DNA from: an uncultured Verrucomicrobiota bacterium
GTDB lineage: Bacteria; Verrucomicrobiota; Kiritimatiellia; CAZCOO01
Direction of reading: 5' to 3'
Length of the DNA stretch: 39,024 nt
NCBI GenBank assembly: GCA_964500395.1
Contig: CAZCOO010000005.1
Span: 1-39,024, forward strand
This document shows positions 3,902-33,630 of this stretch, piece by piece. The number at the start of each line of letters is the position of its first letter. Position 1 is the first letter of the stretch. A program made the position numbers and the translations under genes. The notes under the pieces are model-generated. The model was not told the origin of the DNA. It worked only from the letters and a program-made list of their open reading frames with translations, and did no database searches.

Positions 3902-3914
3902 AACGCTTCCCCTC

Positions 3915-6101: not shown

Positions 6102-6350
6102 ATGTCTGCCATCCTGAGGTTGGAGGTTTCCAGTTTCCTTGAAGAACGCGGGTCCTTGCGCAGACCCTCCGCCAAATTCATGTGGGGGTTCTGATTCGCG
6201 CGTTGGGACGACCAACCCCCGGGGGCCGCCGACCGGCTTGGATGCCGACAGATGCCCGGACGGGTACTTCGGGTTCGGAATAGTAGGCCTTTTCCGCGCC
6301 GCTGTCCAATAAGATCAGCACGTCCGGACGCGCCGGTCCGCCCCGGGGCA

Positions 6351-8069: not shown

Positions 8070-8081
8070 CGAATCGCCGGA

Positions 8082-10607: not shown

Positions 10608-10650
10608 AGGAATACGTCTCCAGACATACAGGGGTCGATGGGGCGGGCAC

Positions 10651-10998
10651 TCAGGACTGGACGTCCTCGTCCGAGGGGGCCTCCCCCTTGTCCAGCACCT
10701 GGGTCACGGCGCCGCGCGCCACCTCGATCTTGACCTTATCGGCAATCTTGATGGTGAGGATTTTGTCTTTCACATTGGTCACCGTGCCGAGAATGCCGCC
10801 GCCGAACATCACCCGATCCCCGGTCTTGACGGCCTCGAGAAGGGCCTTGCGCTCTTTCTCTTTCCGCTGTTGGGGTCGGATCAGGATGAAATAAAAAATG
10901 GCGATCATGATGGCGAGCCACCCGAACATGAACATCGGGGACTGCTGCTGGGCTCCCTCCCCGCTCGGGGCCGCCATGGCTAACCAGATTCCGTACAT
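10651..10998 (-). CDS. yajC: Preprotein translocase subunit YajC
   Basis: ..IMIAIFYFILIRPQQRKEKERKALLEAVKTGDRVMFGGGILGTVTNV is a typical YajC core. It holds the conserved position between tgt and secDF. Confidence 0.88.
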   Translation of the reverse strand: MYGIWLAMAAPSGEGAQQQSPMFMFGWLAIMIAIFYFILIRPQQRKEKERKALLEAVKTGDRVMFGGGILGTVTNVKDKILTIKIADKVKIEVARGAVTQVLDKGEAPSDEDVQS

Positions 10999-11011
10999 AC
11001 CTCTGCTCTCC

Positions 11012-12151
11012 TCACAGTTTCGCGCGGACGCCCGCGCTCGTTTCGTTGTAGGCTTCCTGAAACTTCTCCCGGTAGGCGGAAAATTCGCCCTGTCGAATGG
11101 CGTTTCGCGCCTCCCGCATCACCGTCTCGTAGAAAAATAAATTGTGCAGGGTCAGCAGCTTGACCCCCAGAATCTCATCCACATTCAGCAGATGCCGGAT
11201 GTAGGCCCGACTGAACCGCGTGCAGACCGGGCATTCGCACCCCTCTTCCACGGGCCGCGGATCGTCCCGAAACCGTCCCGCCTTCACCGGCAGGCGGCCG
11301 GAGCGCGTGAACGCCGACCCGTTCCGGGCACAACGCGTAGGCATGACACAATCGAACATGTCCACGCCCGCCGCCACGGCATCCAGCACCTGCGTCAGCA
11401 ACCCCACACCCATGAGATACCGGGGCTGGTGCGCGGGCAGGTGCGCCACCGTATCGTTCACGCCGCGCCGGATCAATTCCTCCGGCTCGCCCACGCTCAC
11501 GCCTCCGATCGCGTACCCGTCAAATCCCAGGGTCTGCAGATCCCGGGCACAGTCCGCGCGCAGGTCCGGCCAGATGCCGCCCTGCACAATGCCGAACACC
11601 AACTGCCCGTCCGCCCGCGGCTGGGCCGCACACGAAGCCGCCCATGCTAGGGTCCGCTCCACGGCTTGGCAAGCGTATTCCCGCTCGCAGGGGTACGGCG
11701 GACATTCATCAAAGACCATGGCAATATCGGAGCCCAACTGCCGCTGAATGGCCATGGCCTCGACCGGGCCGATAAAGCGTTCCCGGCCGTCCACCGCAGA
11801 CCGGAAGAGGACGCCGTCGGGCCGGATCTGCCGGCAGTCCGAGAGGCTGAAGACCTGGAAGCCCCCGCTGTCGGTGAGGATGGCGCCCGACCACCCCATA
11901 AAGCGGTGGAGCCCGCCCAGGCCGGCGATCAAGTCCGCCCCCGGCCGCTCGTTCAGGTGATAGGTGTTGGACAGGATGATGGATATCCCCAGGGCTTCGA
12001 GTTCCGCGGGGTCCATGGCCTTGACCGTGGCGTGGGTGCCCACCGGCATAAAGGTCGGTGTCTCCACCGGTCCGTGCGCGGTGTGGAGACAGGCGGTGCG
12101 GGCCCGGGAGGCCGCGTCCGAGGCATCAATCTGGAAGGTGCCGGGTTTCAT
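11012..12151 (-). CDS. tgt: Queuine tRNA-ribosyltransferase (tRNA-guanine transglycosylase)
   Basis: VETPTFMPVGTHATVK, ILSNTYHL, TDSGGFQVFS, YLMGVG, and the Zn site CECPVC..H. I prefer the start at ATG 12151 (MKPGTFQ..). Confidence 0.92.
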   Translation of the reverse strand: MKPGTFQIDASDAASRARTACLHTAHGPVETPTFMPVGTHATVKAMDPAELEALGISIILSNTYHLNERPGADLIAGLGGLHRFMGWSGAILTDSGGFQVFSLSDCRQIRPDGVLFRSAVDGRERFIGPVEAMAIQRQLGSDIAMVFDECPPYPCEREYACQAVERTLAWAASCAAQPRADGQLVFGIVQGGIWPDLRADCARDLQTLGFDGYAIGGVSVGEPEELIRRGVNDTVAHLPAHQPRYLMGVGLLTQVLDAVAAGVDMFDCVMPTRCARNGSAFTRSGRLPVKAGRFRDDPRPVEEGCECPVCTRFSRAYIRHLLNVDEILGVKLLTLHNLFFYETVMREARNAIRQGEFSAYREKFQEAYNETSAGVRAKL

Positions 12152-12300
12152 AATTCGTGTCGGGATCCCATGCAGATCCGGTAGAGTGCAGATTCCCGGC
12201 CCCGGGGGCAAGGATGGAGATGCGGGGGAGCCGGCGGGCCCGGGAGGCTCGGGGCGGGCACACGCGAATCCGGCGTACGTGGACCCTGCGGGATCACAGG

Positions 12301-12320
12301 GAAAAAACGGCGCACCGTGT
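12301..12320 (-). terminator. Possible weak intrinsic terminator after the HAMP gene
   Basis: The minus strand reads ACGGTGCGCCGTTTTTT starting 12 nt after the stop codon: a 4-bp stem (ACGG/CCGT) followed by a U6 tract. A T6 run is rare in this GC-rich DNA, but the stem is short. Confidence 0.3.
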
Positions 12321-12331
12321 CTCCCCGGCCC

Positions 12332-13276
12332 TCACTCCGCCCCCGGTCGCTTCAACATGCGCTGCAGGCGGGCCGCGGTGAGGTTGAACCGCCTGGCAAA
12401 ATGCCGGGACTCGGCATCCCCGGATTCTTCCAGCTCCACCGGGAAATCGCCGGCGCCGAGACGCGTCAGGGCTTCGGCCCACGCGGCCCGGCGGCGGTCG
12501 TCCGCCCTCTTCCGCCACACAAGAAGACCCGTCATACCGGCTCCCAGGAGAATCAGAAGCCCCCCGATTCCCCCCTGCACGGTGCCGAAGGCCCGGTTTC
12601 GAATCCCGACTGCCCGCTCCTCTCCCTGCTCGACGATTCTGTGCAGCCGGGCCTCGAGCCGGTGGGCGAGCGCCTCCTTCAACGCCCGCTCATTGACCGA
12701 CACACACACCATCCGCTCCGCCCCCTCTACCCGGCGGGCGACGGAAAAGACTTCCATGCCGGGGAACTGCCGGGTATCCGGCGTCCGATGGGTCCAGGCA
12801 ACGGATCCGGAAGGGGGACGCGGATGGAGGGTATCCCGCCAGGCCGGCATCGCTTTATGCCACCGGTACAGCGACCGCTCCGCGCGGGGAATCACTCGTT
12901 CCGCCAGAATGTCAGGGCCGTCCCACACCGCGATATGATGAGGGACACGGGGCCCGTCGCCGGGCTCCGGCGACAGGAGGGACCGGCTCAGCGAGTCCAG
13001 AATCCGGCGCATCTCCTCCGCACCGGACGCGCCCTGCAAACGGAGGGACAGCAGCTCGGCGAGCCCCCGGGCCCGGGACCGCACCAACGCCTCCATCCGA
13101 TCGGCGAGGGCATCCCGATCCCAGCGGGACAGTTCGCGGAGGCGTTGCCTTGTCATCTCCTGGTGCGCGGCATGCAGTTCGCCCGCAGCCTGGAGAGCGA
13201 CAAGCAGGGACCCCGCGCCCATCAGGCCCAGCAGAACCAGGCCCGCTATAGCCGTACGCTTTGGGAATCCGCCCAT
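12332..13276 (-). CDS. Membrane sensor-like protein: TM, periplasmic domain of about 200 aa, TM, HAMP, with no output domain
   Basis: TM1 is TAIAGLVLLGLMGAGSLLVAL and TM2 is GGIGGLLILLGAGMTGLLVW. A HAMP-like segment follows (RKRADDRRRAAWAEALTRLGAGDFPVELEESGDAESRHFARRFNLTAARL), and the protein ends about 10 aa later. Confidence 0.6.
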   Translation of the reverse strand: MGGFPKRTAIAGLVLLGLMGAGSLLVALQAAGELHAAHQEMTRQRLRELSRWDRDALADRMEALVRSRARGLAELLSLRLQGASGAEEMRRILDSLSRSLLSPEPGDGPRVPHHIAVWDGPDILAERVIPRAERSLYRWHKAMPAWRDTLHPRPPSGSVAWTHRTPDTRQFPGMEVFSVARRVEGAERMVCVSVNERALKEALAHRLEARLHRIVEQGEERAVGIRNRAFGTVQGGIGGLLILLGAGMTGLLVWRKRADDRRRAAWAEALTRLGAGDFPVELEESGDAESRHFARRFNLTAARLQRMLKRPGAE

Positions 13277-13372
13277 GTGGAGGTTGTACCCGCGGAGGAC
13301 GGAGAGGGCAAGCGTTCAGCCGGCGGGTTCGCCCTTTTCCCTCCGGGCCCGCATCACGGCCGGCGTCTGCAC

Positions 13373-13409
13373 TTCTTCCCGGCAGGGCGGTTTGGCCTCA
13401 AGCCGGCGA
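13373..13409. repeat. Intergenic palindromic element, copy A (TTCTTCCCGGCAGGGCGGTTTGGCCTCAAGCCGGCGA)
   Basis: 32/37 identical to 38960..38996. The imperfect arm positions keep pairing as G-U on plus-strand RNA. It lies 24 nt past the TPR-porin stop and 96 nt upstream of the HAMP gene's start. Confidence 0.7.
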
Positions 13410-13435
13410 CTTCTTTTCGCGCGGCGCGGACGGGA

Positions 13436-16400
13436 TCAGAACCGGACCTGGAGCGCTACCCGCCAGGTATCCCGTTCGTAATCGGGTGTCTCGAAGTGGC
13501 TCACCGACCCCAGCAGAGAGAGCCGGCGGGTGAGCCGCAGGTCCGCATTGAGGCGGGCGCCCCATACGAATTTCCAGTCCCCATCCCCTTCGCGCGCATA
13601 CCCGGCCTCGCCGCTGGTGGTATAGTGCAGCAGCCGGTACGTGCCCCGCAGCGCGGCATAGAGCTGGTGTTTCTGGAGTTCCTCGGGCGCGTAGTACTCG
13701 TCCGGGTCCCGGTCGCTGTCCGCAAACCGGAACCGGTACCCTGCCCCGAGGTACGGCCACTCCTGCAGGCGGCGGACAATGCGGCCGTTCACCATGTACG
13801 TATCGTTTTCATCGGTGCGCAGAATCGCGAATCCATTCGCGTAGACATCCCACAGGTCCAGCGCGCGGGAATAGGTGTACAGGCCGAATTGATCGAACAG
13901 GATCTCGTCCCGGACCGCCTCGATGGTCTCGACCTGGTCGCGCCACCATTCCAGCTCGACATACCCGCTGAACGGGCGATTCGGCAGATGCACGTTGGCG
14001 CGGCCGCCGAGGTGGTCGTCGATCTCCGGGTTGTCAAAATCCATCCACCACAACTCGCCCCGCAACCACTGCTGCGGAAAATAAAACCAGAGGAGGTCGC
14101 CGCCGGTGCGGATGCCCTCTTCCACGCCCAGCCCGTCCCGCGTCCAGCGATTGTAGTCTCCGAACAGGCCGAGGCGGAGATGATCGCTGACAAACCCGTG
14201 CGCACGGGCTCCGTCCCGCTCGAAGGTCCTCTCGTCGGAGTCCTCCCAGCCGCGCGCGTCGACTTCGAGCTGGAGGCGTTTCTTGTTCTCGGCCCGATCG
14301 AGCGCGTCCTGGATCTTTTCATCATCCGGGGCCAGGTCCCGGGCGTTCCGCAGATGCTCGAGCGCACTGGGCAGGTCGCCCTGCTGGTATGCATTGGCCC
14401 CCCAGTTGAACTCGACCTGGAGGGGATCGGCGCCCAGGTCCCGGACCTCCCGGAACCACCGGTTGGCCCGGACGTGCTGACGGTGCCAGTACAAAACCTT
14501 GGCCAATTCCAGCTTGGCCCGGATCAGGGGATTGCCCTCGCTGATGTGGGCTACCACATTGGTTGCCCCCCAATACGGGGCGACCGATTTTGCGGGCAGG
14601 CGGAGGGGGTCCCGCTCCGGCCCCATGAATCCGCTGTCGTCGAGAAAGAGGGCATAATCAAAGAACTCCTCCGCGGCCTCGTGCAGGACTTCCAGCGAGT
14701 CCGGCTCTGTATCCAGCGAAAAGTGGCCGTAGTCGCCCGATGGATAGAACAGAATCTTCGGCCCCTCGCCGGGGAGCTGCTCCGCGGCGGCGGCGAGGGC
14801 GTTCCGAACCCGGTCGCGCATCTCGTCGAGGGTTTCCCGCCGGCCCTCTTCATAGAGGCGGTGTGTCAGCGGGTTGCCGCGGACGCCCTCCGCGTTGACG
14901 GGGCGGCGCTCATCGTCGGGCGGGCCGCTGCCGGCGATCTGCCAGCGCGGGGACTGGAGGATCTCCCGGTAGGCCAGGCCGCCCTCGCCGGTTCCGAACT
15001 GGAAGCGAAGATAGGACGGCTCCCCGGCAAGAACCGCGCGGATATCGTGCTCCTTGAGCAACGTGTCCAGGTCGGGAATGGCGCTGCTCTCCGGCTCCAC
15101 CAGCACCAGCACAACCCGTTTTTCCCGGGCATCGGGATCGACGTCCTCCCCGATGTGCAGGAACGAAAACCCGTTGCTGGTAATGGCCTGAACATGGTCC
15201 GCCACCTGCTTCACCGAGTTAAACCCCGGATAGTCGCATGCGGTGACATTGCGGTAGGCGAGCACGGGAACCGCCTGCGAGGGGTGCGGCTCGGACACAT
15301 CCGCCAGCTCGCGGATGGCGGGCCGGAATTGCTCGTCCTCCGCGAGGGAAATCGCATGCCGGCGGATGGTCTCGATATCCCACGGCCGCTGATCGACCAG
15401 TGCGTCCGCATAGTCGAGGGCCTCCTGGAAGGCTTCCCGCCGCGAGGCGAGTTCGCGGAGGCGAAGCAGGGCGGGGAAGAATTCCGGATTGCGGGCCAGC
15501 AGGTCCTCGTAGGTGTGCTGGGCATTGGTCCACTGCTCCATGCCGAGATAGGCCCGCCCGACGGCCCGGGCCATGGGGACATAGCCCGGATCCTGTTCCA
15601 GATAGGCGCGGGAATCCGCGAGCGTGGTCTCCCAATCCTCCAGGTACTCAGCCAGCTCGGAGCGCAGCCGGTACAGAAGAATGGATGGATGGGTCTGGAT
15701 GCCCAGGGTGGCCCAGTCGAAGGCGGCCTCCCGGTTGGCCAGGGCCGATTCGAGCTCGGCCAGGGAGTAGTATACTTTCTCGTTCGGATTCAGATCGGCC
15801 AGTTCTTCGAGAATGGTACGGGCTTCGCCCGGCTGACAGAGTTTCTTGAGCGTCTCGGCGGTCTCGAGCCCGTAGTAGGTCACCTCGGGCGAGGTGTAGT
15901 GCGCCATGTACCAGATATTCAGGGCCTCGGAGAGGTTCCCGAGCCGGCTCAGCATGTGGGCCAGCTCGGAACGGAATTCTTCCCGGCCCAGCTCGACCTG
16001 GCGTTCGAACCAGGCGGCCTCCCGGGCGGCGGCTTCAAAGCGGTCGGCGTCGATCAGCAGATCGAATAACTGGGCGCGGAGAAAGGGCTGCTCAGGATCC
16101 GCGGCGAGGCTGGCGGCAAACCGTTCGATCGCGGTATCGTCATCCTCATCCCACAGGGCGCGCTTTCCCTGCAGCCGCAGCTCGGCGGCCTGGGGCAGGT
16201 CCTTTTCCAGCGCGCGCTCGAGCACGGTCCGCGCTTCATCGGGCCGGTTGAGCCGTTCGGCCAGTTCGATGGTTTTCACCCACAATGAACGGGACGGATC
16301 GCGCTCGAGAACGCGCCGGTAGAGGGTGTAGGCGCGGGCAAACCGCCGGCCCTCGAACAGGTAGTCGGCGAAGCCCTGCAGGATATCCGTCACGCGGGAA

Positions 16401-18169
16401 ACGTAGTCGGGGCGCTCCTGCAGGATTTCATCCACCCGGTCCACCAGGGGAAGCAGGCTGGGCTCTTCGTCACAGAGGTAGGCGATCTCGAGGAAGACAT
16501 CAATCTCCAGCAGGGGCGCCTCGGCCAGCCGCTCCTGCACCCAGCGCTCCACGTAGCGGGTGCTCTGGCCGCAGTGGGCATTGAGGGCGCGCGCATAGGC
16601 CAGGTAGAGCCCGGCCCGGGCCGGGTCGTCGTCCCGCTCCCAGGCCCGCTGGAGAAACGGCATGGCCGCCACCAGCCGGTTTTTTTCCACCAGGAGGGAG
16701 CCGAACTCATACCAGGACAATGCGGGGGCCCACGTGCGGAAGAGTTCGAGGGCCCGGTCGGTCTCGTGGTTTTCCACGAGCAGGGCGAGGACCTGGGCCA
16801 TGGTATCGTGCCGGGCGGCAAGCTCCTGGTCGCGCAGGGCTGTGTCCCAGGCTTCGATGGCGGCCTCCGGCCGTTCCTTGACCCAGTACGACCACCCGAG
16901 ATCCCGCCAGGCCGCCGTCCGGGACGGATCGAGTTCCACCTGGCGGCGCAGGAGTTCAATTCGCTTGTCGACTTCTTTTACGCGCCCGGCGCGATTGGCC
17001 AGGGCCCGGATCAGGTGGCGGCGGACGCGTTCGTCGTCGGGATGGTCCGCATGCAGTGCCTCCAGAATGTCGATGGCCTCCCGATCGTTCTCTTTTTCCC
17101 CGGCGTGCAGGGCGCGGGCCAGCCCCTGGATATAGGCGACATCATCGGTATCGACCGCCTGAAGAAACGCATCGGCGGCGGCGCGCCCCTCCGTATCGAG
17201 GAGCAGCCGGGTCTTCAGGATGAGGCCCCGGCGATGGTCCGGGGCGCTCTCCAAAACTCGGTCGAGGGTGGCCAGGGCCTTGCCGGTCTCGCCGCCGTCC
17301 AGATACGCCTCGGAGGCCCAGAACCACCAGGAGGCCGGCGGGGCATCCGCGGCCTCGGCGGTCTCTACCCAGGTGCGAGCCGCGCGCAGGGGTTCGCGAT
17401 TGTGCCGGTAGGCCCAGCCCAGGTTGACGCGGGCCTGCAACCAGTCCGGCCGCAGGGTGACGGCGCGTTCGTAGGCCTCGACGGCAGGCCGGGGCGCCCG
17501 GGCCTGCAGGTGGCGGTCGCCGAGTACGCTCCAGGCCAGGGCGGTGAGGTTGCTTTGAACCGCATTTGTCGGGGCCAGACCGGCGACCGTCGCCTTTCCG
17601 GGGGCGGGCGCCACGGCCAGTTCGCACACGGCGTGGGCCGCCTGCTGAAGACCCTCCCGGGGGGCCGTCTGGGCCCATCGCGAGGCGAGGAGGGTCACCA
17701 TGTTGGTATCCCCGCCGGCCCAGGCCGTCTGCAGCATGCGCTGAACCGAGGACGGGGAGATCAATTCGATCTCCTCATCGGGCAGCGCCATCCACTGGGT
17801 GCGGATGCGGTGCCGCTTCCCCGTCTCCATCCACATCAAGAATTGCCATTCCCGAATCTCTATGGGCTCGGACACGCCCAGATCCAGCGCCGTATCGAAG
17901 GCCTCCTCCGCCTCTTCGTATTCTTCCCGCAGCATTTGCACCCGGCCGAGCTGGGCCCAGGCGGCCGGGTACGCCGGATCCAGGGACACCGCCCGCCGGG
18001 CCAGATCCAGCGCCTCGCCGTACTGTTGCGCGCCCAGCCGCTCCCGGCTTTCGTGCAGGACCTCGCGCACAGAGACGACGTCATCAGCGGCCCGCCCGGA
18101 GGCGCCGAACAGCCCGCCCAGCATGCAAACACCTGCCAGAACCATCCATATTCTCGAACGCCTCATCAC
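13436..18169 (-). CDS. Giant secreted TPR scaffold with an embedded CE4-like insert and a C-terminal outer-membrane beta-barrel (PgaA/PelB/BcsC-like exporter)
   Basis: 1,577 aa. The signal peptide is MMRRSRIWMVLAGVCMLGGLFGASGRAADD. TPR-type helices span about aa 40-960 and 1210-1295. A non-TPR insert at aa 965-1200 (nt 14570..15277) resembles a polysaccharide-deacetylase fold (VPVLAYRNV.., KRVVLVLVEPESSAIPDLDTLLKEHDIRAVLA, ILFYPSGDYG). The last 275 aa or so are alternating beta-strands ending in ..RVALQVRF. The GTG at 18169 or ATG at 18166 overlaps the upstream stop. Confidence 0.75.
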   Translation of the reverse strand: MMRRSRIWMVLAGVCMLGGLFGASGRAADDVVSVREVLHESRERLGAQQYGEALDLARRAVSLDPAYPAAWAQLGRVQMLREEYEEAEEAFDTALDLGVSEPIEIREWQFLMWMETGKRHRIRTQWMALPDEEIELISPSSVQRMLQTAWAGGDTNMVTLLASRWAQTAPREGLQQAAHAVCELAVAPAPGKATVAGLAPTNAVQSNLTALAWSVLGDRHLQARAPRPAVEAYERAVTLRPDWLQARVNLGWAYRHNREPLRAARTWVETAEAADAPPASWWFWASEAYLDGGETGKALATLDRVLESAPDHRRGLILKTRLLLDTEGRAAADAFLQAVDTDDVAYIQGLARALHAGEKENDREAIDILEALHADHPDDERVRRHLIRALANRAGRVKEVDKRIELLRRQVELDPSRTAAWRDLGWSYWVKERPEAAIEAWDTALRDQELAARHDTMAQVLALLVENHETDRALELFRTWAPALSWYEFGSLLVEKNRLVAAMPFLQRAWERDDDPARAGLYLAYARALNAHCGQSTRYVERWVQERLAEAPLLEIDVFLEIAYLCDEEPSLLPLVDRVDEILQERPDYVSRVTDILQGFADYLFEGRRFARAYTLYRRVLERDPSRSLWVKTIELAERLNRPDEARTVLERALEKDLPQAAELRLQGKRALWDEDDDTAIERFAASLAADPEQPFLRAQLFDLLIDADRFEAAAREAAWFERQVELGREEFRSELAHMLSRLGNLSEALNIWYMAHYTSPEVTYYGLETAETLKKLCQPGEARTILEELADLNPNEKVYYSLAELESALANREAAFDWATLGIQTHPSILLYRLRSELAEYLEDWETTLADSRAYLEQDPGYVPMARAVGRAYLGMEQWTNAQHTYEDLLARNPEFFPALLRLRELASRREAFQEALDYADALVDQRPWDIETIRRHAISLAEDEQFRPAIRELADVSEPHPSQAVPVLAYRNVTACDYPGFNSVKQVADHVQAITSNGFSFLHIGEDVDPDAREKRVVLVLVEPESSAIPDLDTLLKEHDIRAVLAGEPSYLRFQFGTGEGGLAYREILQSPRWQIAGSGPPDDERRPVNAEGVRGNPLTHRLYEEGRRETLDEMRDRVRNALAAAAEQLPGEGPKILFYPSGDYGHFSLDTEPDSLEVLHEAAEEFFDYALFLDDSGFMGPERDPLRLPAKSVAPYWGATNVVAHISEGNPLIRAKLELAKVLYWHRQHVRANRWFREVRDLGADPLQVEFNWGANAYQQGDLPSALEHLRNARDLAPDDEKIQDALDRAENKKRLQLEVDARGWEDSDERTFERDGARAHGFVSDHLRLGLFGDYNRWTRDGLGVEEGIRTGGDLLWFYFPQQWLRGELWWMDFDNPEIDDHLGGRANVHLPNRPFSGYVELEWWRDQVETIEAVRDEILFDQFGLYTYSRALDLWDVYANGFAILRTDENDTYMVNGRIVRRLQEWPYLGAGYRFRFADSDRDPDEYYAPEELQKHQLYAALRGTYRLLHYTTSGEAGYAREGDGDWKFVWGARLNADLRLTRRLSLLGSVSHFETPDYERDTWRVALQVRF

Positions 18170-20130
18170 TCTGCCTCTCTCTTTGCCGACCGGAGGGCCT
18201 CCGACCGCATCGCCCCCGCCACGCCGTACGGCCGATCCGCGAGGCGGAGGCCCTCGGCGACGAGATGATGGGCGGGGATGTGATACATGAGGGCCTCGAG
18301 GGCCTCTCTCTGCTGCGGCCCCTCCGTGATCAACAGAATCCCCGGCGCGGGATCGGGGGGACTCTCGGCAATGGAGAGGGCCGTTTCGGGCGAGATGATG
18401 CTCACGATCTGGACGGCTTCAGCCCGGCAGGCCTCGATCAGCTTCGGGTGGTACCCCGATACGGCGATGGAATCGATGAGCGCCCCCATCAGCGGGTCAT
18501 CGCGCACGGCCCGGAGTTCGCTCATCACCGCCTCCACCTGCTGGAGGTCGAGTTCGCCGGCCGGGTTGATCCTCGGGATGGCGGCGATTCCCTCGGCCGC
18601 CGCGGCCAGCACCGCATCCCGGCGGGACCGGGACAGGTCAAACTCGGGACGTTCTTCCATCCCGAACCAGGGGGGCACCCAGTAGGTCACCCGCCGGCGG
18701 ACATCGTCGGGCAGTTCCAGCAGCGCGGGGCCGACCAGGTACAGCGGGGGCAGCGCCTCCGCCTCAAAATCGTACAGGGTCACGGCGCCCTCGTCTTCGT
18801 GAATAAACTGAATCTTGCCGTGGTCGACGGTTCTGGAGACCGGGGCCGGATCGATCACGGCGGTGCCGTCACAGCTCACCCACAGCCGATTGCGCTTGAT
18901 CCGCACCTCGACGGTGTGGCGGTTGGTGGGGCCCTCCGTATAGGGATGCCAGGCAACCGTGTGCATCTGGTTGTAGAGGCGCTCCTGGATGCGCATCCCT
19001 TCGGCTGAGGAGGTCAGCCGGATGTACGCATGGGGCCCGGCGAAACGGAGATACAGGCAGGCGAGACCGTCCCCGCGGAGCTGCCAGGAAAACCGGATCC
19101 GGGCATCCATCCAGTCGCTGCTGCCGCGAAGCAGCACCCGGCCGTCCGGAGCGATCCGCACGCCTCCCTCGCGCTCCGCCACAGGGCCTTCGGCAAACCA
19201 GCGCTCCCCCGTGGAGATGTAGTCGACGGAGGTGAGGTTCGGGGAAAACCGTTCAATCTCCGCCAGGAGGTCCTCCCCCGTCCAATCCCCCCGGGCGCGC
19301 AGGCGGGTCAGGTGATAGGGATTGTCACGCAGGCCATTAAAGGGATCCCCGCTGCCGGTTATCGCGAGCTGATGGTAATCCCGCACGACCTGGCGATTGA
19401 GCTGGGCCGCCATGGGATCGGCGAGCCGGCCCGTCCCGGGATCGGCAAAGGGGTACAGATAGAGGAGGGGCGGGGCGCCGCCCGTCGTCAGCAGCTCGGC
19501 GGCCGTCCGGTAATCTTCCGTGACCCGGCGGGCAAATTCTTCTTCGGTCTCCCGGCGGCCCTTGTGCCATTTGCGATTGCTGAGGAAATGCCCCTCCAGC
19601 CTCGACTCATCGATGGCAATGGTTTTGTTTGCATCGTGTCCCATGCTGGCCAGGGTCCAGTGGTCCATGCCGGCGATCTTCCCGATGTCGCCCTCTTTCA
19701 CCTGGTGGTGCCCCCACTCGTCCGTGACAAACGTGGGAACGGCCATCACGGCGCTGTAGCCGAAGTGTTGCAGGATCGGCGTCGACCGGATGAGGCTGTC
19801 CTTCCGTCCGCCCTCAAAGATCAGCAGGACCGCCTTCTCCGGCAAGGGCGTGCCTTCGCGGTAAAACCGCAGGACATCTCCGGGCGTGATGGTCTTGAAT
19901 CCCGCCCCATGCAATGCGCCGAGCTGTTCATTCAGGCGGCCCGGGCTCACGTAGCGCGGATCCTCATCCCGGGTAATCCCCTCGTAGGACACGGCGTAGA
20001 ACCCCTTCCAGGAGTGCCACGCCTCCGGCTCCCGCTCCGGCTCGGGCTTGGGGCGGAGGAGATACCAGGCATAGCCCACGACGATCAGCGTGACCACGAA
20101 CCACTGGAAGAGGACAAACACTTTTTTCAT
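18166..20130 (-). CDS. Membrane-anchored polysaccharide-deacetylase-like (CE4) protein with degenerate catalytic motif, plus a jelly-roll (LamG/DUF1080-like) domain and a C-terminal domain of unknown function
   Basis: The N-terminal TM is MKKVFVLFQWFVVTLIVVGYAWYLL. The CE4-like core is KAVLLIFEGGRKDSLIRSTPILQHFGYSAVMAV..LASMGHD..LYLYPFADPG. FEGG (nt 19807..19818) stands where NodB motif 1 has FDDG. The middle domain is RIRFSWQLRGDG..LYLRF..VEVRIKRNRLWVSCDGTAVID..GKIQFIHEDEGAVTLYDFE. The ATG at 20130 forms an ATGA overlap with the synthase gene's stop. Confidence 0.65.
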   Translation of the reverse strand: MKKVFVLFQWFVVTLIVVGYAWYLLRPKPEPEREPEAWHSWKGFYAVSYEGITRDEDPRYVSPGRLNEQLGALHGAGFKTITPGDVLRFYREGTPLPEKAVLLIFEGGRKDSLIRSTPILQHFGYSAVMAVPTFVTDEWGHHQVKEGDIGKIAGMDHWTLASMGHDANKTIAIDESRLEGHFLSNRKWHKGRRETEEEFARRVTEDYRTAAELLTTGGAPPLLYLYPFADPGTGRLADPMAAQLNRQVVRDYHQLAITGSGDPFNGLRDNPYHLTRLRARGDWTGEDLLAEIERFSPNLTSVDYISTGERWFAEGPVAEREGGVRIAPDGRVLLRGSSDWMDARIRFSWQLRGDGLACLYLRFAGPHAYIRLTSSAEGMRIQERLYNQMHTVAWHPYTEGPTNRHTVEVRIKRNRLWVSCDGTAVIDPAPVSRTVDHGKIQFIHEDEGAVTLYDFEAEALPPLYLVGPALLELPDDVRRRVTYWVPPWFGMEERPEFDLSRSRRDAVLAAAAEGIAAIPRINPAGELDLQQVEAVMSELRAVRDDPLMGALIDSIAVSGYHPKLIEACRAEAVQIVSIISPETALSIAESPPDPAPGILLITEGPQQREALEALMYHIPAHHLVAEGLRLADRPYGVAGAMRSEALRSAKREAE

Positions 20131-21791
20131 GCCGCAGCTTCCTTCTTCTCCCGGGTCCCCCACTCCGGCGTCCAGAAGGTGATGACGGCCCAGGGCAACT
20201 GCCAGACCAGCACGAGAAGATAAAAATAGCAGAAAAACACCCCGTAGCCCCAGAGCGCGGACCGGCGGGCAAAGAGGTAACTCGTACTCATCAGCGAACT
20301 CATGAGCAGAATCCCGAACAGGTAGATCAGGGGCGTGCCGTGATGGAAAAACGGCACATAGATCAAGGCCCGGAAGACGATGGCCGGACTCAGCACGGGC
20401 AGAATCAAGCCCAGGTAGAAGGACAGGGACATCAGCGGCTGACGCCGCCAGAAAAAGCCGCAGGCCCGAATGGATTCCCGGAACCAGGACCGCTTCCAGC
20501 GCATCTGCTGGCGCAAAAAGGTCCGGTAGTCTTCCGGCACGATCGTGGTACAGCGGGAGCGTGAATCGTACTTCAGCTTGTGCCCGGCCTTGAGGAGAAA
20601 ATTCGTAATCGAGCGATCGTCGCCGAAGGTGGCCGGGGACCCGAGGAACGTCTGCTTCACCCAGGGCTCGAGGAACGGCTCCAGGGTACTGCGGCGGTAC
20701 GCGGAGAGCGGGCCGGAAAGACAGGTAATGGAGTCAAAGATGCTCTCCGCGCCCTTCATAATGCGAAACCCGATGTAGTACCGCACCGCCTGCATCTTGG
20801 TGAGCATATTGTCCCAGGCGTTTTCCACATCGCAATGGCCGGTAACCGCCGCGACCTCTTCGTCCTGAAACCCGTCCACGAGATTGCGGATGGCATTGGT
20901 TTCCAGAAAACTGTCCGAATCGATAAAGATGACGATCTCGCCGGTCGTGATGCGGGTGCCCGCCACCAGGCCGTCCCGTTTGCCCTGCGATTCTTCGAAG
21001 TTGATAATGGTCAATTCCGGGTATTTCTCCCGCGCCCGGTTCATCGCCGCGAGGGTGGCATCCGTACTCCCGTCATTGATGGCCACAACCTCCATCTTGT
21101 CTGCCGGGTACCGGCTTTCCATCACCTGCATGATGGTTCGCTCGATGTGCTCTTCCTCGTTCTTGGTGGGGATGATGACCGAAACCGTCGGCAGGTCCTC
21201 CCGGGGTTTCGGCGGGCGGTAGAACCCGGCGAAGAGAAACCGGCTCACCAGGTACCCGCCCACGGTGAGGCTGTAGAGGAAAATGGGGACGTCGAACCAG
21301 AAGTAGTACAGGTTGCCGTACTTAATGAGCAGGATGAGACTGATGGTCAGAAAGCAGCCGATCACCGCGCCCCAGCGCAGATACGTCCAGGTGGTGCGGG
21401 CGAGCCGCCGGCTGAGCGACTCGCTGAACTGCACCCCCGCGATTCCCGCGGCCTCGTCGTGCCGGCGAATCTCGGCATCGAGTTCGTACTGCCGGTTCTG
21501 AAACTCCTCCGGCATGGCCGCTTCGGGTACCTTGAAGCGAAGCTTGACCCGCTTCTCGCCGCCCGGCAACTCCACATTCTCGAGGCGCAGCCCGCCATCG
21601 GAGATGTCGGACGCGGTCCCCGTGAAGACCTGTTCGGTCTCCCCCTGCCCCACGATGATTTCCACGGGAAAGTCGACCCGGTAGCGGGAGTATTGCCGCC
21701 GATCGCTGGGATCGGGCCTCGCCAGGGCGCGCAGTCGCCGATCCTGAATCTTATGAGGGACCTTTCCCCCGGTATTGTCTTCGCCGTTCAT
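20127..21791 (-). CDS. N-terminal PilZ domain fused to a processive family-2 glycosyltransferase of the hyaluronan/chitin (HasA/NodC) synthase type
   Basis: PilZ motifs are RRQYSR (nt 21684..21701) and DISDGG (nt 21591..21608). GT2 motifs are VSVIIPTKNEE, INDGSTD, FIDSDS, CLSGPLSAYRR, GDDRSITNF and QQMRWKRSWFRES (QQMRW at nt 20496..20510). TM helices flank the GT domain. The GDDR..TN and QQxRWxxSxFRES strings closely resemble streptococcal HasA as I recall it. Confidence 0.8.
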   Translation of the reverse strand: MNGEDNTGGKVPHKIQDRRLRALARPDPSDRRQYSRYRVDFPVEIIVGQGETEQVFTGTASDISDGGLRLENVELPGGEKRVKLRFKVPEAAMPEEFQNRQYELDAEIRRHDEAAGIAGVQFSESLSRRLARTTWTYLRWGAVIGCFLTISLILLIKYGNLYYFWFDVPIFLYSLTVGGYLVSRFLFAGFYRPPKPREDLPTVSVIIPTKNEEEHIERTIMQVMESRYPADKMEVVAINDGSTDATLAAMNRAREKYPELTIINFEESQGKRDGLVAGTRITTGEIVIFIDSDSFLETNAIRNLVDGFQDEEVAAVTGHCDVENAWDNMLTKMQAVRYYIGFRIMKGAESIFDSITCLSGPLSAYRRSTLEPFLEPWVKQTFLGSPATFGDDRSITNFLLKAGHKLKYDSRSRCTTIVPEDYRTFLRQQMRWKRSWFRESIRACGFFWRRQPLMSLSFYLGLILPVLSPAIVFRALIYVPFFHHGTPLIYLFGILLMSSLMSTSYLFARRSALWGYGVFFCYFYLLVLVWQLPWAVITFWTPEWGTREKKEAAA

Positions 21792-21946
21792 GTCTCCCCC
21801 AACATGGTCTGGCCGACCGGCTCGTTTCTATGTCCAGAATATCCTGTCACGCCGTAAGATACAGCACATATTTTCAAAATTTCCCCCCTGCCTGTTCGGA
21901 CGAGTTCGCCATTGGTTTTCCGGCACAACTTTGCTAGAGAGTCCCC
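21792..21946. promoter_or_regulatory. Divergent intergenic control region between the synthase operon and the GGDEF/HD-GYP regulator gene
   Basis: 155 nt, locally AT-richer (..ATATTTTCAAAATTTCCCC..), flanked by two outward-facing start codons. Both promoters must lie here. I could not define a convincing consensus promoter. Confidence 0.5.
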
Positions 21947-24547
21947 ATGGCCGAGTATCCTGAAACAAGCGCAAATGTTGCGGGCCGTCCTTCACGGTCG
22001 ACGGATCCCCTTCCCTCCCCCCAACGGATTCTCGTCCTCGATGACGACCGGCACATCCGCCGCATCATGCGGCGGCGGTTGCGGGAATCCGGATGCGATG
22101 TGACCACTGTAGCCAACGGACGTGAAGGATTGCAAGCCCTCCTTCGCGATGACTACGATGTTGCCGTCGTCGACCTCCGCATGCAGGAAATGGACGGCAT
22201 GGCCTTTGTCCAGGAGGCCCTGAAGATCTGGCCGTGGCTTCAGATTATCATCTGCAGCGGGTACCTCGATGAGGACGTCATCCGCCAGGCGGAGGCCCTG
22301 GGCGTATCGCATGTGCTGTCCAAGCCGGTGGAGTACGATTCATTCGCGGCCCTGGTACGACGCCTGGCAGAGACATCGAAATCCGAGGGCGCTCGGGGCC
22401 GCCATCCCCCGGAACGGCTGCAGCAGCAGCTTCGGCTTCTCCGGCAGATTACCGAATCCGGTCTTCATGAACGAAACCTGCCCGCCGCCCTCAACCGGTT
22501 GGGAGACGGGCTGACCCAGCTACTCCCCGCCGATCTGCTGGGCATCCTGGTCACGGAAAACTCGGACTGCACGCTGTTCCTTCGGCCCCACCGCATCCCG
22601 GAGCCGCACCATATTTCCGATATCAAATCTCACATGTCGAATCGGTACCAGGCGCTCAGCGGCGAGCCCCTGCCCCTTCATTACATGCAACTGGACATCA
22701 AGCCGGCACGGGTCGAGGAGGAGTCCGATATTGAGCAGTTCGGAACCATTGTGTCGGTCCCCATCATCTCCGACGACCAGGTCCACGGGCTGATCACCCT
22801 GTGCTCGGGCGAGGCCGACGCCTACTCGCCTTCCGATATTGCCTTTCTCTACCAGACGTCCAACCAGCTCTCGACCATCCTCGTCGCCCTCGGGGAAATC
22901 CGGAGCATGGCCATTCGGGACAGCCTCACGGGCCTCTACAACCGGCGCCATCTGGACGAACAGCTCGAGCGCATGTGGCTGCTCTCCCGGCGCTATCACC
23001 ACCCCATGGCCGTGCTGGCGGTGGATCTCGACCATTTCAAGGACATCAATGACTCGCTCGGCCATGCCGTAGGCGATGAGGTGATCAAGGAATTTGCCGA
23101 CCTGCTCAAGACCGAAACCCGGGCCTCCGACATCCTCGCCCGGCACGGAGGCGATGAGTTTTTGATCGTCCTCTCGCAGGCCAATGTAGAGGAAGCGGAA
23201 GGGCTGGCCACGCGGATGCTGGAGAAGGTCCGCGAGCATCCGTTCCTGTCGCAGGACCACTCCCTGGCGCTCACCGCCTCGATCGGCGTCGCCCTGTACC
23301 GGCCGGAGCGGGGCGCGCTGTCGCATGAAGACCTGGTGCATCAGGCCGACCAGGCGCTCTACCTCGCCAAACAGGAAGGGCGCAACCGGATGGCCGTGTA
23401 CCGCACCGAGCACGATGCCCCGGTGGAAGAGGAGCCCGTCGAGTCGCCGGAAACGGACCCGCCCCCGGAACGATCCCGCTCGAGCGTGAAGGCCCGCGTT
23501 CTGGTCGTGGACGACGAGGCCAGCGTCATCCGCATTCTTCATCGCATGTTGGTGCGCGAGGGGTACGACATCCTGTCGGCTCAGTCTGTGGAGGAGGCCA
23601 TTCCCCTGCTGCAGGAGCACCGGGGCCATATCGATATATTGCTCACGGATCTCGCCCTCCCCACGAGCGACGGGTTCGAAATGCTTCGCCAGGCGCAGGA
23701 GCGGGATCCCCGCATGGTCCGGATCGTGATCAGCGGCTACGTCACCGCCGACAATGCCATTTCCGCGCTGCGCCACGGCGCCTACGACTTCGTGCAGAAG
23801 CCCTTCGTGCGCGAACAGCTCCTGGCCCAGCTCGACCGCGCCCTGGAGTATCGAACCCTGCTGCGGGAAAACGACCTCTACCGCAATCACCTGGAGGACA
23901 TGATCCGGGCCAAGAGCGCCGAGGTCACCACGGCCCTGAACCAGATCAAAACCTCCTATGAATTTACCCTGGAAACGATGGTGGCCATGCTGGATGCGCG
24001 GGAGTACGAGACCAGCCGGCACAGTCTGCGGGTGCGGGAACTCACGGAAGTGCTGGCACGCCACATGGGCATCGAGCCCCCCGAACTCGACGATATCGCC
24101 CGCGGCGCCCTGTTGCACGACATCGGGAAAATCGGGATCCCGGATGCCATCCTTCAGAAGCCCGGCCAACTGACCCCGGAAGAGTGGGACACCATGAAGC
24201 GCCATCCGGAAATCGGCTACCGGTTTCTGAAATCGAGCCCCTTCCTCAAGGACTCGGCCGAGATTGTGCTCTCCCACCATGAGAAGTACAGCGGGGGCGG
24301 CTATCCCCGGGGGCTCAAGGGGACGGACATCTGCCTCGGGGCCCGCATCTTTTCCGTGATCGATGCCTACGATGCGATCCGCTCCCCGCGGGTGTACAAA
24401 CCGTCGCTGCCGCGGGAACAGGCCGAACAGGAAATCCGCTCTCAATCCGGCAAGCAGTTCGACCCCGATGTCGTGGACGCATTCCTCTCCATCATTCCGG
24501 AGATCGAGCGGCGCGGGCAGTGGAGCGACTCCGGCCTGCAGACCTGA
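21947..24547 (+). CDS. Hybrid response regulator REC-GAF-GGDEF-REC-HD-GYP (c-di-GMP synthase plus phosphodiesterase)
   Basis: REC1 is RILVLDDD..DVAVVDLRMQEMDG..SKP. A GAF-like segment spans about aa 170-320. The GGDEF domain has an I-site (RASD, then 5 aa, then GGDEF at nt 23147..23161). REC2 is RVLVVDDE..DILLTDLALPTSDG..QKPF. The HD-GYP domain has LLHDIGKIGIPD and HHEKYSGGGYPRGL. Confidence 0.88.
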   Translation: MAEYPETSANVAGRPSRSTDPLPSPQRILVLDDDRHIRRIMRRRLRESGCDVTTVANGREGLQALLRDDYDVAVVDLRMQEMDGMAFVQEALKIWPWLQIIICSGYLDEDVIRQAEALGVSHVLSKPVEYDSFAALVRRLAETSKSEGARGRHPPERLQQQLRLLRQITESGLHERNLPAALNRLGDGLTQLLPADLLGILVTENSDCTLFLRPHRIPEPHHISDIKSHMSNRYQALSGEPLPLHYMQLDIKPARVEEESDIEQFGTIVSVPIISDDQVHGLITLCSGEADAYSPSDIAFLYQTSNQLSTILVALGEIRSMAIRDSLTGLYNRRHLDEQLERMWLLSRRYHHPMAVLAVDLDHFKDINDSLGHAVGDEVIKEFADLLKTETRASDILARHGGDEFLIVLSQANVEEAEGLATRMLEKVREHPFLSQDHSLALTASIGVALYRPERGALSHEDLVHQADQALYLAKQEGRNRMAVYRTEHDAPVEEEPVESPETDPPPERSRSSVKARVLVVDDEASVIRILHRMLVREGYDILSAQSVEEAIPLLQEHRGHIDILLTDLALPTSDGFEMLRQAQERDPRMVRIVISGYVTADNAISALRHGAYDFVQKPFVREQLLAQLDRALEYRTLLRENDLYRNHLEDMIRAKSAEVTTALNQIKTSYEFTLETMVAMLDAREYETSRHSLRVRELTEVLARHMGIEPPELDDIARGALLHDIGKIGIPDAILQKPGQLTPEEWDTMKRHPEIGYRFLKSSPFLKDSAEIVLSHHEKYSGGGYPRGLKGTDICLGARIFSVIDAYDAIRSPRVYKPSLPREQAEQEIRSQSGKQFDPDVVDAFLSIIPEIERRGQWSDSGLQT

Positions 24548-24554
24548 GCGGGGT

Positions 24555-27240
<2,686 letters not shown>

Positions 27241-27251
<11 letters not shown>

Positions 27252-28842
27252 TGCGTTCGCCATCCTTGTGCTGGGTCTCATCCAGAAAGAGCTTGTATTC
27301 CACGCTGTCGACCAGCGCCTCCCAGGACGCCTCGATAATATTTTCCGAAACCCCGACCGTGCTCCAGCGATTGGGCCCGTCGCTCGACTCGATGAGCACC
27401 CGGGTGCGGGCCGCGGTGTGCTCTTCCGGGTCCAGAATGCGCACCCGGTAGTCGGTGAGGACGACATCGGCGATCTGCGGGTAAAAGCGGGTCAGGGCCT
27501 TGCGCAGGGCCGTATCCAGGGCATTGACGGGACCGTCCCCTTCCCCCGCCATATGCTCCTGTTCGCCATCCACGTTGAGCTTGATGGTCGCCTCCGTCAG
27601 GGACGGGTCTTCCGGCCCCCGCTTTTCCACGATGACGCGAAACCCTTCCAGGTTGAAAAACGGTCGATGGGCCCGGAGGACTTTCTGGATCAGAATCTTG
27701 AAGGAGGCCTCCGCCGCCTCGAACTCGTACCCCTCCTTTTCCAGCCGCTCCAGCTCGCTCAAGACCTGCCGCACCTCGGGCGAGGATTTATCCATCTTCA
27801 GCCCCATCTCCGCGGCCTTCATGAACACATTGCTGCCCCCGGACAGCTCGGAGATCAGGATCCGGCGTTCGCTGCCGACCTGCTGCGGGTCCACATGTTC
27901 GAAGCTGTGGGGATTCTTCCGCACCCCGTCCACATGCATCCCCGCCTTGTGGGCAAAGGCGCTGTCCCCCACAAAGGGAAGCTTCTTATTGGGCCGGTGG
28001 TTGCTCAGTTCATCGACCACGCGGGAGACGGACTTCAGCTTGGTCAGCCGCTCCGGGTCGTCGAGGCAGGTCATATCCATCTTCAGCACGATATTGGGAA
28101 TGATGGAGCAGAGATTGGCATTGCCGCATCGCTCCCCGTACCCGTTGATCGTGCCCTGCACGTGCACGGCCCCGGCGCGCAGAGCGGCCAGGGAATTGGC
28201 CACTCCGCATTCGGAGTCGTTGTGGGAGTGAATGCCCAGGGGGGTGTCGAGCCGGCCGCCGACTTCTTCTGTAACACGGGCGATGTCGTGGGGCAGCGTT
28301 CCCCCGTTGGTATCGCACAGGACGAGCCGGTCGGCGCCGCCCCGGGCCGCGGCCTCGAGGGTCCCGATCGCATACGCCGGGTTGTCCCCGTAGCCGTCAA
28401 AGAAGTGCTCGGCGTCGTAGATCACCTCCCGGCCCTGTTCCTTCAGGAACCGGACCGAATCCTCGATCATGGCGAGGTTTTCTTCGTCCGTGGTCTTCAG
28501 CACCTCGTGCACGTGCAGCAACCAACTCTTGCCGAAGATGGTCACCACCGGCGTCCCGGCCTGTACCAGGGCCTGCAAACCCTTGTCCTGGTGCGGCTGG
28601 ATCCGGGCCCGGCGGGTACTTCCGAAGGCGGCAATCCGGGCGTGTCGCAGCGGCTCCTTCTGCATGCTCTGGAAGAAGGCCAGATCTTTGGGGTTCGACG
28701 CGGCAAAGCCGCCCTCGATGTAGTCGACCCCCATGTCATCGAGAATCCTGGCGATGCGGATCTTCCCGCCGATGGAAAACGACACCCCTTCCCCCTGGGC
28801 GCCGTCCCGCAATGTCGTGTCATAGATCTCGATGCGCTTCAT
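27241..28842 (-). CDS. cimA: (R)-citramalate synthase (2-isopropylmalate synthase family, long form)
   Basis: MKRIEIYDTTLRDGAQGEGVSF..YIEGGFAASNPKD..AAFGSTRRA..LCDTNGG..HSHNDSECGVANSLAA..GTINGYGERCGNANLC, plus a C-terminal LeuA-dimer-like regulatory domain. It is close to CimA sequences such as the Geobacter type as I recall them. Confidence 0.85.
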
Positions 28843-33605: not shown

Positions 33606-33630
33606 AACCATCTCCCCGGAGAAAAGAGCC

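Follow-up and report, generated by a model that had tools for sequence, protein, structure and literature searches.

Few synthase-dependent polysaccharide systems are understood, and these few dominate thinking on the biofilm matrices driven by cyclic di-guanosine monophosphate (c-di-GMP). The PgaABCD system of E. coli brings together, in one operon under c-di-GMP control, a glycosyltransferase family 2 (GT2) synthase, the periplasmic protein PgaB with its carbohydrate esterase family 4 (CE4) domain, and an exporter that joins a TPR scaffold to a beta-barrel. BcsA-BcsB-BcsC couples a processive synthase with a fused PilZ domain to a membrane-anchored periplasmic partner, built of carbohydrate-binding-like and alpha/beta domains, and to a large TPR-barrel exporter. 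Here we analyse a three-gene cassette that would resemble both systems in these respects, found on contig CAZCOO010000005.1 (assembly GCA_964500395.1) of an uncultured Verrucomicrobiota bacterium of the Kiritimatiellia; we refer to the whole stretch analysed, positions 1 to 39,024, as the window. Gene 1 encodes a putative synthase, gene 2 a predicted periplasmic partner and gene 3 a TPR scaffold with a probable C-terminal barrel (Table 1).

We conclude, with a probability of roughly 0.7, that the cassette encodes a synthase-dependent system for exopolysaccharide that c-di-GMP controls directly. By analogy its overall logic would match that of the known systems, with a c-di-GMP receptor, a synthase, a periplasmic partner and a TPR-barrel protein; the principle is familiar, whereas its parts and the way they are put together are unfamiliar. 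The three genes are tightly joined, as expected from the translational coupling proposed in the initial annotation: the gene 1 stop overlaps the gene 2 ATG in an ATGA at 20127-20130 (start 20130, MKKVF...), and the gene 2 stop overlaps the GTG or ATG start of gene 3 (18169 or 18166) in a GTGATG at 18164-18169.

Judged by its proteins, the cassette falls outside both the Pga and the Bcs systems on synthase, partner and exporter alike. Its synthase is of the hyaluronan synthase (HAS)/NodC type with a fused PilZ domain, in place of PgaC and PgaD, and does not qualify for NCBIfam TIGR03937. Unlike PgaB, gene 2 is predicted to be anchored in the inner membrane, lacks the Asp/His/His site of the CE4 fold, and has, where PgaB has glycoside hydrolase family 153 (GH153), a beta-sandwich followed by an alpha/beta domain; unlike PgaA, gene 3 has an extra CE4-like insert, and its probable barrel has no detectable similarity to that of PgaA. 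BcsA bears its PilZ domain at the C-terminus, whereas that of gene 1 is N-terminal, before the first transmembrane helix, and the GT2 subfamily is another. Gene 2, anchored at its N-terminus, has no sequence similarity to BcsB, and the cassette holds no BcsZ-type glycoside hydrolase of family 8.

The remaining described systems are less close. Class I HAS, NodC and chitin synthases share with gene 1 the DxD, GDDR and QQxRW motifs, the C-terminal WGTR and a transmembrane pair followed by the glycosyltransferase domain; to our knowledge none of them has a PilZ domain, a dedicated periplasmic partner or a TPR-barrel exporter. NfrB-NfrA-YbcH of E. coli likewise comprises a c-di-GMP-activated GT2, a large outer-membrane partner and, by annotation, an auxiliary periplasmic protein, but the c-di-GMP receptor of NfrB is an MshEN-type domain, not PilZ, and the gene 3 barrel has no similarity to NfrA. 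The Pel (PelA-G) and alginate (Alg8/Alg44/AlgK/AlgE) systems are also synthase-dependent and c-di-GMP-gated, with a TPR scaffold and an outer-membrane pore; Pel uses a family 4 glycosyltransferase and a degenerate-GGDEF receptor. Neither is known to have a HAS-type synthase or CE4 modules without a metal site. An N-terminal PilZ domain does occur in Alg44 (PMC8461298), but in the alginate system it sits on a separate co-polymerase, and the TPR protein and the porin are separate as well. Two further candidates were rejected as relatives: the L. acidophilus Gts operon, considered as a PilZ-glycosyltransferase system, combines a BcsA-like glycosyltransferase with a receptor of degenerate EAL type, and C. 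difficile CD2545 belongs to work on clostridial cellulose synthase.

The synthase and its recurring neighbours

Residues 194-541 of gene 1 match the Pfam families GT2, Glyco_tranf_2_3 and Chitin_synth_2 (E 1.8e-20). Among NCBIfam models NodC scores highest (172 bits, cutoff 550), followed by PgaC_IcaA (136 bits, cutoff 422, a partial match) and CelA (47 bits, cutoff 699). Hyaluronan synthases are the best solved relatives, with PDB matches spanning E 5.5e-37 to 4.8e-34, among them Xenopus HAS1 (8smm, E 5.5e-37) and the Chlorella-virus enzyme (7sp7, E 1e-34), as against E ~1e-6 over a short stretch for BcsA. The catalytic motifs D240, D244, D291-S-D293, S359-G-P...Y365-R, G390-D-D-R and Q428-Q-M-R-W-K-R-S (428-435) are invariant in 81 of 81 homologues, and the C-terminal WGTR aligns with the WGTR of HAS. 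By these matches gene 1 is placed in the class I HAS/NodC/chitin synthase clade of GT2, in line with the HasA/NodC-like character first read from it, without being assigned to any characterised equivalog, its NodC score being far below the cutoff.

The PilZ domain, too, lies at the N-terminus as initially annotated, and scores 41 bits against a Pfam cutoff of 22.5. It contains RRQYSR (R31-R32-x3-R36) and DISDGG (D62-x-S64-x2-G67), which correspond to the RRxxxR and DxSxxG motifs of PilZ. Across the 81 homologues R31, R36 and G67 are present without exception, as is Asp or Asn at position 62, and S64 is found in 79; one observation weighs on the other side, namely that the second Arg of RRxxxR varies in many of them. 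With both motifs in place, the domain would serve as a c-di-GMP receptor on the synthase itself. A hydropathy scan found a clear transmembrane segment at residues 138-156 and three or four more between 461 and 537, and residues 166-190 look by eye like a weaker second N-terminal helix. Two helices between the PilZ and glycosyltransferase domains would leave both domains in the cytoplasm.

Conservation of the neighbours around the synthase had been set beforehand as a test of the system, and it was found. Scanning a single genome for each species returned at least 566 loci with synthase relatives; we fetched the best 80 and determined their gene content by tblastn and by clustering of open reading frames (ORFs); counts of accessory genes are those from tblastn, as the ORF clusters were noisy in the high-GC Desulfovibrionaceae, where spurious overlapping frames abound. 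In 79 of the 80 loci the gene immediately downstream of the synthase is a homologue of gene 2. Carriers on the diderm side comprise Verrucomicrobiota, Kiritimatiellia, Lentisphaeraceae, Thermodesulfovibrionales, Desulfobacterales, Desulfovibrionaceae (several of them cultured Solidesulfovibrio), Planctomycetota and Acidobacteriota; the Firmicute carriers are Clostridia, Bacilli (Paenibacillus, Lactobacillus, Cohnella) and Negativicutes (Sporomusa, Pelosinus). Gene 2 is followed by a gene 3 homologue of 1,250-1,667 residues in 37 non-Firmicute loci, the window included, and neither tblastn nor ORF clustering found one in any Firmicute locus. The gene order thus recurs across phyla more than by chance, and the synthase and gene 2 form the core of the system, a pair that Firmicutes have too.

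The place of gene 3 is less uniform. In most loci that lack it a contig end intervenes, and in one Planctomycetota locus (L037) it is present after an additional gap of 2 kb. Four loci are true exceptions and weigh against the system as proposed: two from Planctomycetota (L040, L042) have the synthase and gene 2 with no gene 3 within 8 kb downstream, and two from Kiritimatiellia (L008, 13553-15163; L014, 13559-15148) hold in its slot a protein of 529-536 residues made of TPRs only, without the CE4-like insert and without the barrel. Several loci of Negativicutes, which are diderm Firmicutes, lack a gene 3 homologue and contain other TPR proteins (L051 at 14944-17205, L052 at ~2400-5735 upstream, L074, L076 and L077).

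The nearest homologues come from metagenome-assembled genomes of the PVC group and of Thermodesulfovibrionales. The closest relative, a metagenome contig (L085; JGI 3300015615, 7215-18367) with a synthase 67% identical to gene 1, has the same four-gene module, including a divergent REC-GAF-GGDEF-REC-HD-GYP gene and the same overlaps of starts and stops. Its flanks are wholly different, with histidine-biosynthesis genes after gene 3. The same four genes amid different flanks suggest that the module is mobile as a unit.

The CE4-like modules and the exporter

Pfam has no match anywhere in gene 2, its beta-sandwich included, and NCBIfam PgaB matches its N-terminal part weakly (54 bits, cutoff 923). 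Its architecture became apparent from an AlphaFold model built on a 24-sequence alignment, with a predicted local distance difference test score (pLDDT) of 89 and a predicted template modelling score of 0.87. The model and a transmembrane scan agree on a single N-terminal transmembrane helix at residues 2-25. In Foldseek searches of the PDB the following domain retrieved the PgaB/BpsB/IcaB deacetylases (template modelling score, TM, 0.79 for 3vus and 4u10, 0.74 for 5bu6), and the beta-sandwich retrieved carbohydrate-binding module family 66 (CBM66; 4b1m, TMt 0.74) and lectin-like folds. The C-terminal domain has no sequence match in the PDB, none to the C-terminal domain of PgaB, and a probability of 0.5% against BcsB. 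The protein had been proposed to be membrane-anchored and CE4-like, and both properties are reproduced here.

The canonical catalytic and metal-binding residues are missing from both CE4-like modules of the cassette, whose lack of the Asp-Asp motif had been noted in the initial annotation. HMMER alignments place LTFDDGYQS of PgaB opposite LIFEGGRKD of gene 2 (FDDG becoming FEGG) and SHSHNLH of BpsB opposite SMGHDAN, so that the Asp pair, catalytic base and metal ligand, is now E106-G107 and the metal-binding His pair now M163/N168; where CE4 esterases have (T/F)DD and H-x4-H, gene 2 has FEGG and M-G-H-D-A-N. Firmicute orthologues read F-E-D-G-R, with E-D at the position of D-D, and likewise lack the His pair, both histidines being absent from gene 2 in every clade. 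In place of these residues stands another set. E106, G107, R109 and K110 are invariant in the 24 closest homologues and M163 nearly so, while H165 is the commonest residue at its position in the closest clade and Tyr takes its place in Firmicutes. Among 76 orthologues, with all clades represented, E106, R109, W158, G164, E194, R202, N265 and R276 are kept, each at 90% or more in both the Gram-negative and the Firmicute groups, and most at 100% in the Gram-negative one. Conservation of a residue set of its own across clades argues against simple decay, and the site therefore appears re-tooled rather than plainly degenerate. A profile of gene 2 searched against 1.84 billion representative proteins found 2,413 relatives at E<=1e-10, of which 920 reach E<=1e-30. 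A further set of matches, to proteins 1,236-1,337 residues long (P0245, P0249, P0255, P0261, P0267, P0272, P0278, P0280 and P0282), covers their first ~400 residues.

Gene 3 had been described as a 1,577-residue TPR protein, and Pfam TPR families match it many times, from residue 45 to ~950 and again near residue 1250. A word-indexed search with its C-terminus found one relative, and we then took homologues by tblastn from the fetched loci, aligning the last 640 residues with 25 of them (26 sequences). Three comparisons identify the CE4-like module that interrupts the scaffold. Residues 44-295 of gene 2 align with residues ~967-1214 of gene 3 in hhalign (probability 99.7%, E 7e-26); the profile of the C-terminal alignment matches at positions 23-221 Aggregatibacter PgaB (4u10, E 6e-6) and the deacetylase-like 6go1; and tblastn with residues 965-1214 matches the local gene 2 in the two Kiritimatiellia loci with TPR-only proteins. 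These cross-matches indicate that the insert is a paralogue of the gene 2 domain; the initial annotation, too, had a CE4-like module inside the TPR protein. Its CE4 motif-1 position varies among homologues.

The C-terminus of gene 3 is probably an outer-membrane beta-barrel. Pfam OMP_b-brl matches 15 of the 26 homologues (best E 8.8e-7; window copy E 0.034). The last residue is Phe or Trp in 25 of the 26, the other ending in F-R. Strand-like alternation of hydrophobicity occurs at roughly double the rate seen in the TPR region, with ~12 strand-like segments, and the absence of gene 3 from the Firmicute loci also fits. Other results do not bear the barrel out: an AlphaFold model of the last 640 residues, made from a two-sequence alignment, reached a pLDDT of 39, and profile comparison gave probabilities of 0.6% against E. 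coli PgaA and 0.1% against NfrA, although one homologue matches Pfam PgaA_barrel at E 0.072. Similarity to BcsC is weak (probability 7%, E 0.005), a statistically weak hint that gene 3 and the BcsC exporters may share remote ancestry. It lies in an invariant EYYAPEEL (gene 3 residues ~1490-1500; window 13700-13760), to which GYYSPQEY corresponds in the last part of the E. coli BcsC barrel; the stretch reads (D/G)-x-Y-Y-(A/S)-P-(E/Q)-E among gene 3 homologues, and the likeness to BcsC is a weak one at the level of the motif YY(A/S)P(Q/E)E.

We suggest that gene 2 is most likely a guide or obligate partner subunit, comparable to BcsB, rather than a classical deacetylase. It is coupled to the synthase, co-occurs with it almost universally and would lie in the same membrane, and its predicted sugar-binding groove lacks a metal site and is followed by the CBM-like sandwich and the alpha/beta domain. 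In the mechanism we envisage, the neighbouring REC-GAF-GGDEF-REC-HD-GYP enzyme (gene 5) would set local c-di-GMP upon phosphorylation, and the PilZ domain would pass this signal to the synthase. The GT2 domain would polymerise UDP-N-acetylhexosamine, probably UDP-N-acetylglucosamine (UDP-GlcNAc) and possibly a second sugar as well, into a beta-linked chain, which homology to HAS and chitin synthases suggests is threaded through the transmembrane channel of the synthase itself. Gene 2, beside the synthase, would receive the chain in the periplasm with its metal-free CE4 groove, sandwich and alpha/beta domain. Gene 3 would bridge the periplasm with its TPR solenoid, presenting a further CE4-like module, the more degenerate of the two, close to the outer membrane; its C-terminal barrel would export the chain.

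The polar and charged residues conserved in the old active-site region of gene 2 could mean catalysis instead of binding, and this counts against the guide role. The CE4-like modules might then be active enzymes with a non-canonical, metal-independent mechanism, acting on the polymer as deacetylase, esterase, lyase or hydrolase. The four residues invariant among the closest homologues and the commonly occurring H165 occupy the sites of the CE4 catalytic motifs, six of the polar positions (E106, R109, E194, R202, N265 and R276) hold across the wider family, Firmicute orthologues keep E-D where D-D would be, and a family with 920 representatives at E<=1e-30 is evidently under selection. We nevertheless regard this as possible but unlikely, since the metal His pair is missing in every clade, the gene 3 copy is unconserved at motif 1, and relatives of the cassette usually encode separate canonical deacetylases and a glycoside hydrolase family 18 (GH18)-like hydrolase, which suggests that those tasks belong to other proteins.

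Clues to the polymer

The window contains no GH18-like, canonical CE4, TviB-like or other sugar-nucleotide gene. This weighs against a firm assignment of the product, and any view of the polymer leans on the relatives. A GH18-like gene is present in 47 of the 80 loci, immediately after gene 2 in Firmicutes or after gene 3 in Desulfovibrionaceae and Planctomycetota, and the encoded proteins keep the catalytic motif D-x-(D/E)-x-D-Y-E. Canonical Polysacc_deac_1 genes occur in 33 Firmicute, 15 Desulfovibrionaceae-type and 11 close-clade loci (~59 of 80). GH18 catalysis uses the 2-acetamido group of the substrate itself; with a synthase core of the HAS/NodC/chitin-synthase type, the GH18-like neighbours point to a beta-linked N-acetylhexosamine polymer as the product, a reading drawn from context. 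In 25 Firmicute loci a TviB-like UDP-GlcNAc 6-dehydrogenase (413 and 375 bits) lies directly upstream of or near the synthase. The order there is TviB-like gene, a gene whose product has two or three CE4 domains of canonical type, PilZ-synthase, gene 2 and GH18-like gene (L052, 5760-14620; L053, 7632-15124; L045, L056 and others). This gene content suggests that the Firmicute polymer is a deacetylated N-acetylhexosamine, possibly containing uronic acid, which perhaps arises by partial oxidation.

Such a dehydrogenase directly upstream of the synthase raises the question of whether the product is a hyaluronan-like or other acidic heteropolymer with uronic acid, rather than a chitin-like homopolymer. 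The closest solved structures being hyaluronan synthases, the GDDR, QQxRW and WGTR motifs common to class I HAS, and the conserved Arg and Lys residues of gene 2, which could bind carboxylates, would all fit an acidic chain. The same motifs are present in chitin synthases, however, the NodC score is at least equal to that for HAS, and neither the window nor the Gram-negative loci contain a nucleotide-sugar dehydrogenase. An acidic product therefore seems to us possible but unlikely, with odds well short of even.

A divergent Pga-type system making poly-beta-1,6-GlcNAc (PNAG), with gene 1 as a PgaC variant, gene 2 as a decayed PgaB and gene 3 as a PgaA variant, is very improbable. The part list and order do recall pgaC-pgaB-pgaA, the N-terminal domain of gene 2 is structurally nearest to PgaB, gene 1 has its partial PgaC_IcaA match, and a systematic survey of synthase-dependent operons mentions that environmental bacteria have pga-like operons of a divergent kind (PMC7112194). 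Gene 1, though, reaches 136 bits where PgaC requires 422 and scores higher against NodC and HAS structures; PgaD is missing, with no small PgaD-like gene between or after the cassette genes. Gene 2 stays at 54 bits against 923, without catalytic residues and without GH153, the barrel compares with PgaA at a probability of 0.6%, and the relatives carry GH18-like enzymes, not GH153. Some of those divergent pga-like operons might themselves belong to the cassette family (PMC7112194).

That gene 1 makes short chito-oligosaccharide signals as NodC does, with genes 2 and 3 serving another purpose, is barely credible: NodC is its best NCBIfam match, but at 172 bits against 550, its N- and C-terminal transmembrane segments resemble those of channel-forming HAS, its gene is translationally coupled to those for a predicted periplasmic partner and a probable exporter of the outer membrane, and no nod-type acyl- or deacetylase genes accompany it.

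We found no characterised counterpart of the cassette, which agrees with its having been put forward as an undescribed system. Curated Pfam and NCBIfam families include none for gene 2, for the gene 3 insert or for the barrel, and the source annotations of homologues read "glycosyltransferase", "hyaluronan synthase", "polysaccharide deacetylase family protein" or "hypothetical protein". Searches of the full-text literature, with subscription-only papers outside their reach, returned no PilZ-fused synthase of the HAS/NodC type and no characterised member of the cassette. The survey mentioned above covers only the operons for cellulose, acetylated cellulose, PNAG, Pel and alginate (PMC7112194). 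We give even odds to the broader claim that the cassette represents a phylum-spanning, unrecognised exopolysaccharide class, in which a HAS/chitin-type synthase, gated directly by c-di-GMP via an N-terminal PilZ domain, makes a chitin-like or acidic N-acetylhexosamine polymer and deacetylase folds without their metal site are reused twice.

Were this so, the class would stand beside cellulose, PNAG, alginate, Pel and Nfr as a further system with another synthase clade, another position of the c-di-GMP receptor and another periplasmic partner, and the reused deacetylase folds would act as polymer handlers both at the inner membrane (gene 2) and in the exporter (gene 3). The cassette is widespread, given the number of related loci among species representatives and of gene 2 relatives, and reaches from the little-studied Verrucomicrobiota and Kiritimatiellia, sulfate reducers and Planctomycetota to culturable Firmicutes. 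It suggests a regulated chitin-like or hyaluronan-like matrix polymer in bacteria, would offer a clean example of enzyme folds reused once the catalytic metal site is lost, and invites a natural comparison between PilZ gating of a HAS-type and of a cellulose-type synthase. Genetics should be feasible in culturable carriers such as Solidesulfovibrio, Sporomusa, Paenibacillus and Clostridium argentinense.

Adjacent genes and the rest of the window

The gene divergent from the synthase, gene 5, is the dual GGDEF/HD-GYP enzyme first read from the sequence, at the distance of 155 nucleotides then given. Its Pfam domains follow the order REC, GAF, GGDEF, REC, HD-GYP, and its motifs are all intact: GGDEF, preceded at a distance of five residues by an RxxD inhibitory site, then HD and HHExxxGGGYP. 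It is thus probably both a local source and a local sink of c-di-GMP. Full-length homologues of gene 5 adjoin the synthase in four loci (L008, L014, L023 and L085), and other GGDEF/HD-GYP genes lie near the synthase in several more.

Gene 4, 159 nucleotides beyond gene 3, was initially annotated as a HAMP-only sensor, and this was not confirmed. The cytoplasmic tail of 60 residues after its second transmembrane helix looks HAMP-like by eye, but the protein has no Pfam match, HAMP included, even at E<=10 and no NCBIfam match, and neither the 80 related loci nor the closest relative L085 has a counterpart. Gene 4 is probably not part of the system.

Table 1. Positions of the cassette genes, their domains and the adjacent genes in the window.
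Feature	Position	Strand	Residues	Description or basis
Gene 1	20127-21791	minus	554	predicted inner-membrane synthase
PilZ domain, gene 1	21393-21704	minus	30-133	Pfam PF07238, E 2.1e-10
GT2 catalytic domain, gene 1	20472-21212	minus	~194-440	Pfam and PDB matches, motifs
Gene 2	18166-20130	minus	654	predicted periplasmic partner, N-terminal membrane anchor
PgaB-type CE4-fold domain, gene 2	19246-20013	minus	~40-295	Foldseek on model
Beta-sandwich, gene 2	18733-19203	minus	~310-466	CBM66/concanavalin-like, Foldseek
C-terminal alpha/beta domain, gene 2	18169-18693	minus	~480-654	secondary structure of model
Gene 3	13436-18169	minus	1,577	predicted secreted TPR scaffold
Signal peptide, gene 3			1-27	hydrophobic at 7-25
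TPR region, gene 3	15290-18082	minus	~30-960	Pfam TPR families
CE4-like insert, gene 3	14528-15271	minus	~967-1214	profile comparison
Probable outer-membrane beta-barrel, gene 3	13439-14248	minus	~1308-1577	
Gene 4	12332-13276	minus	314	two transmembrane segments
Gene 5	21947-24547	plus	866	REC-GAF-GGDEF-REC-HD-GYP enzyme, divergent from gene 1
Gene 1/gene 5 divergent intergenic region	21792-21946			155 nucleotides, presumably with both promoters inside

The flanks of the cassette consist of housekeeping genes, with citrate synthase, recJ, secDF and tgt on one side and valS, a leuA-like gene, aspartokinase and homoserine dehydrogenase on the other. Scans of the window found no Rfam families, no c-di-GMP riboswitch and no tRNAs, the divergent region of 155 nucleotides contains no sigma-70 consensus, and promoter and terminator scans gave nothing informative. 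Three long plus-strand ORFs at 3795-6194, 12317-16069 and 24363-27338, opposite citrate synthase, gene 3 and valS, have no family matches and were rejected as antisense artefacts of high GC content. Three others of 314-500 residues, at 127-1407 (plus), 32757-33701 (plus) and 36328-37830 (minus), have no Pfam match and may be genuine genes or artefacts. Across gene 1 and into the beginning of gene 5 (window 19000-23000) the GC fraction falls to 0.60-0.63, compared with 0.66-0.68 over gene 3.

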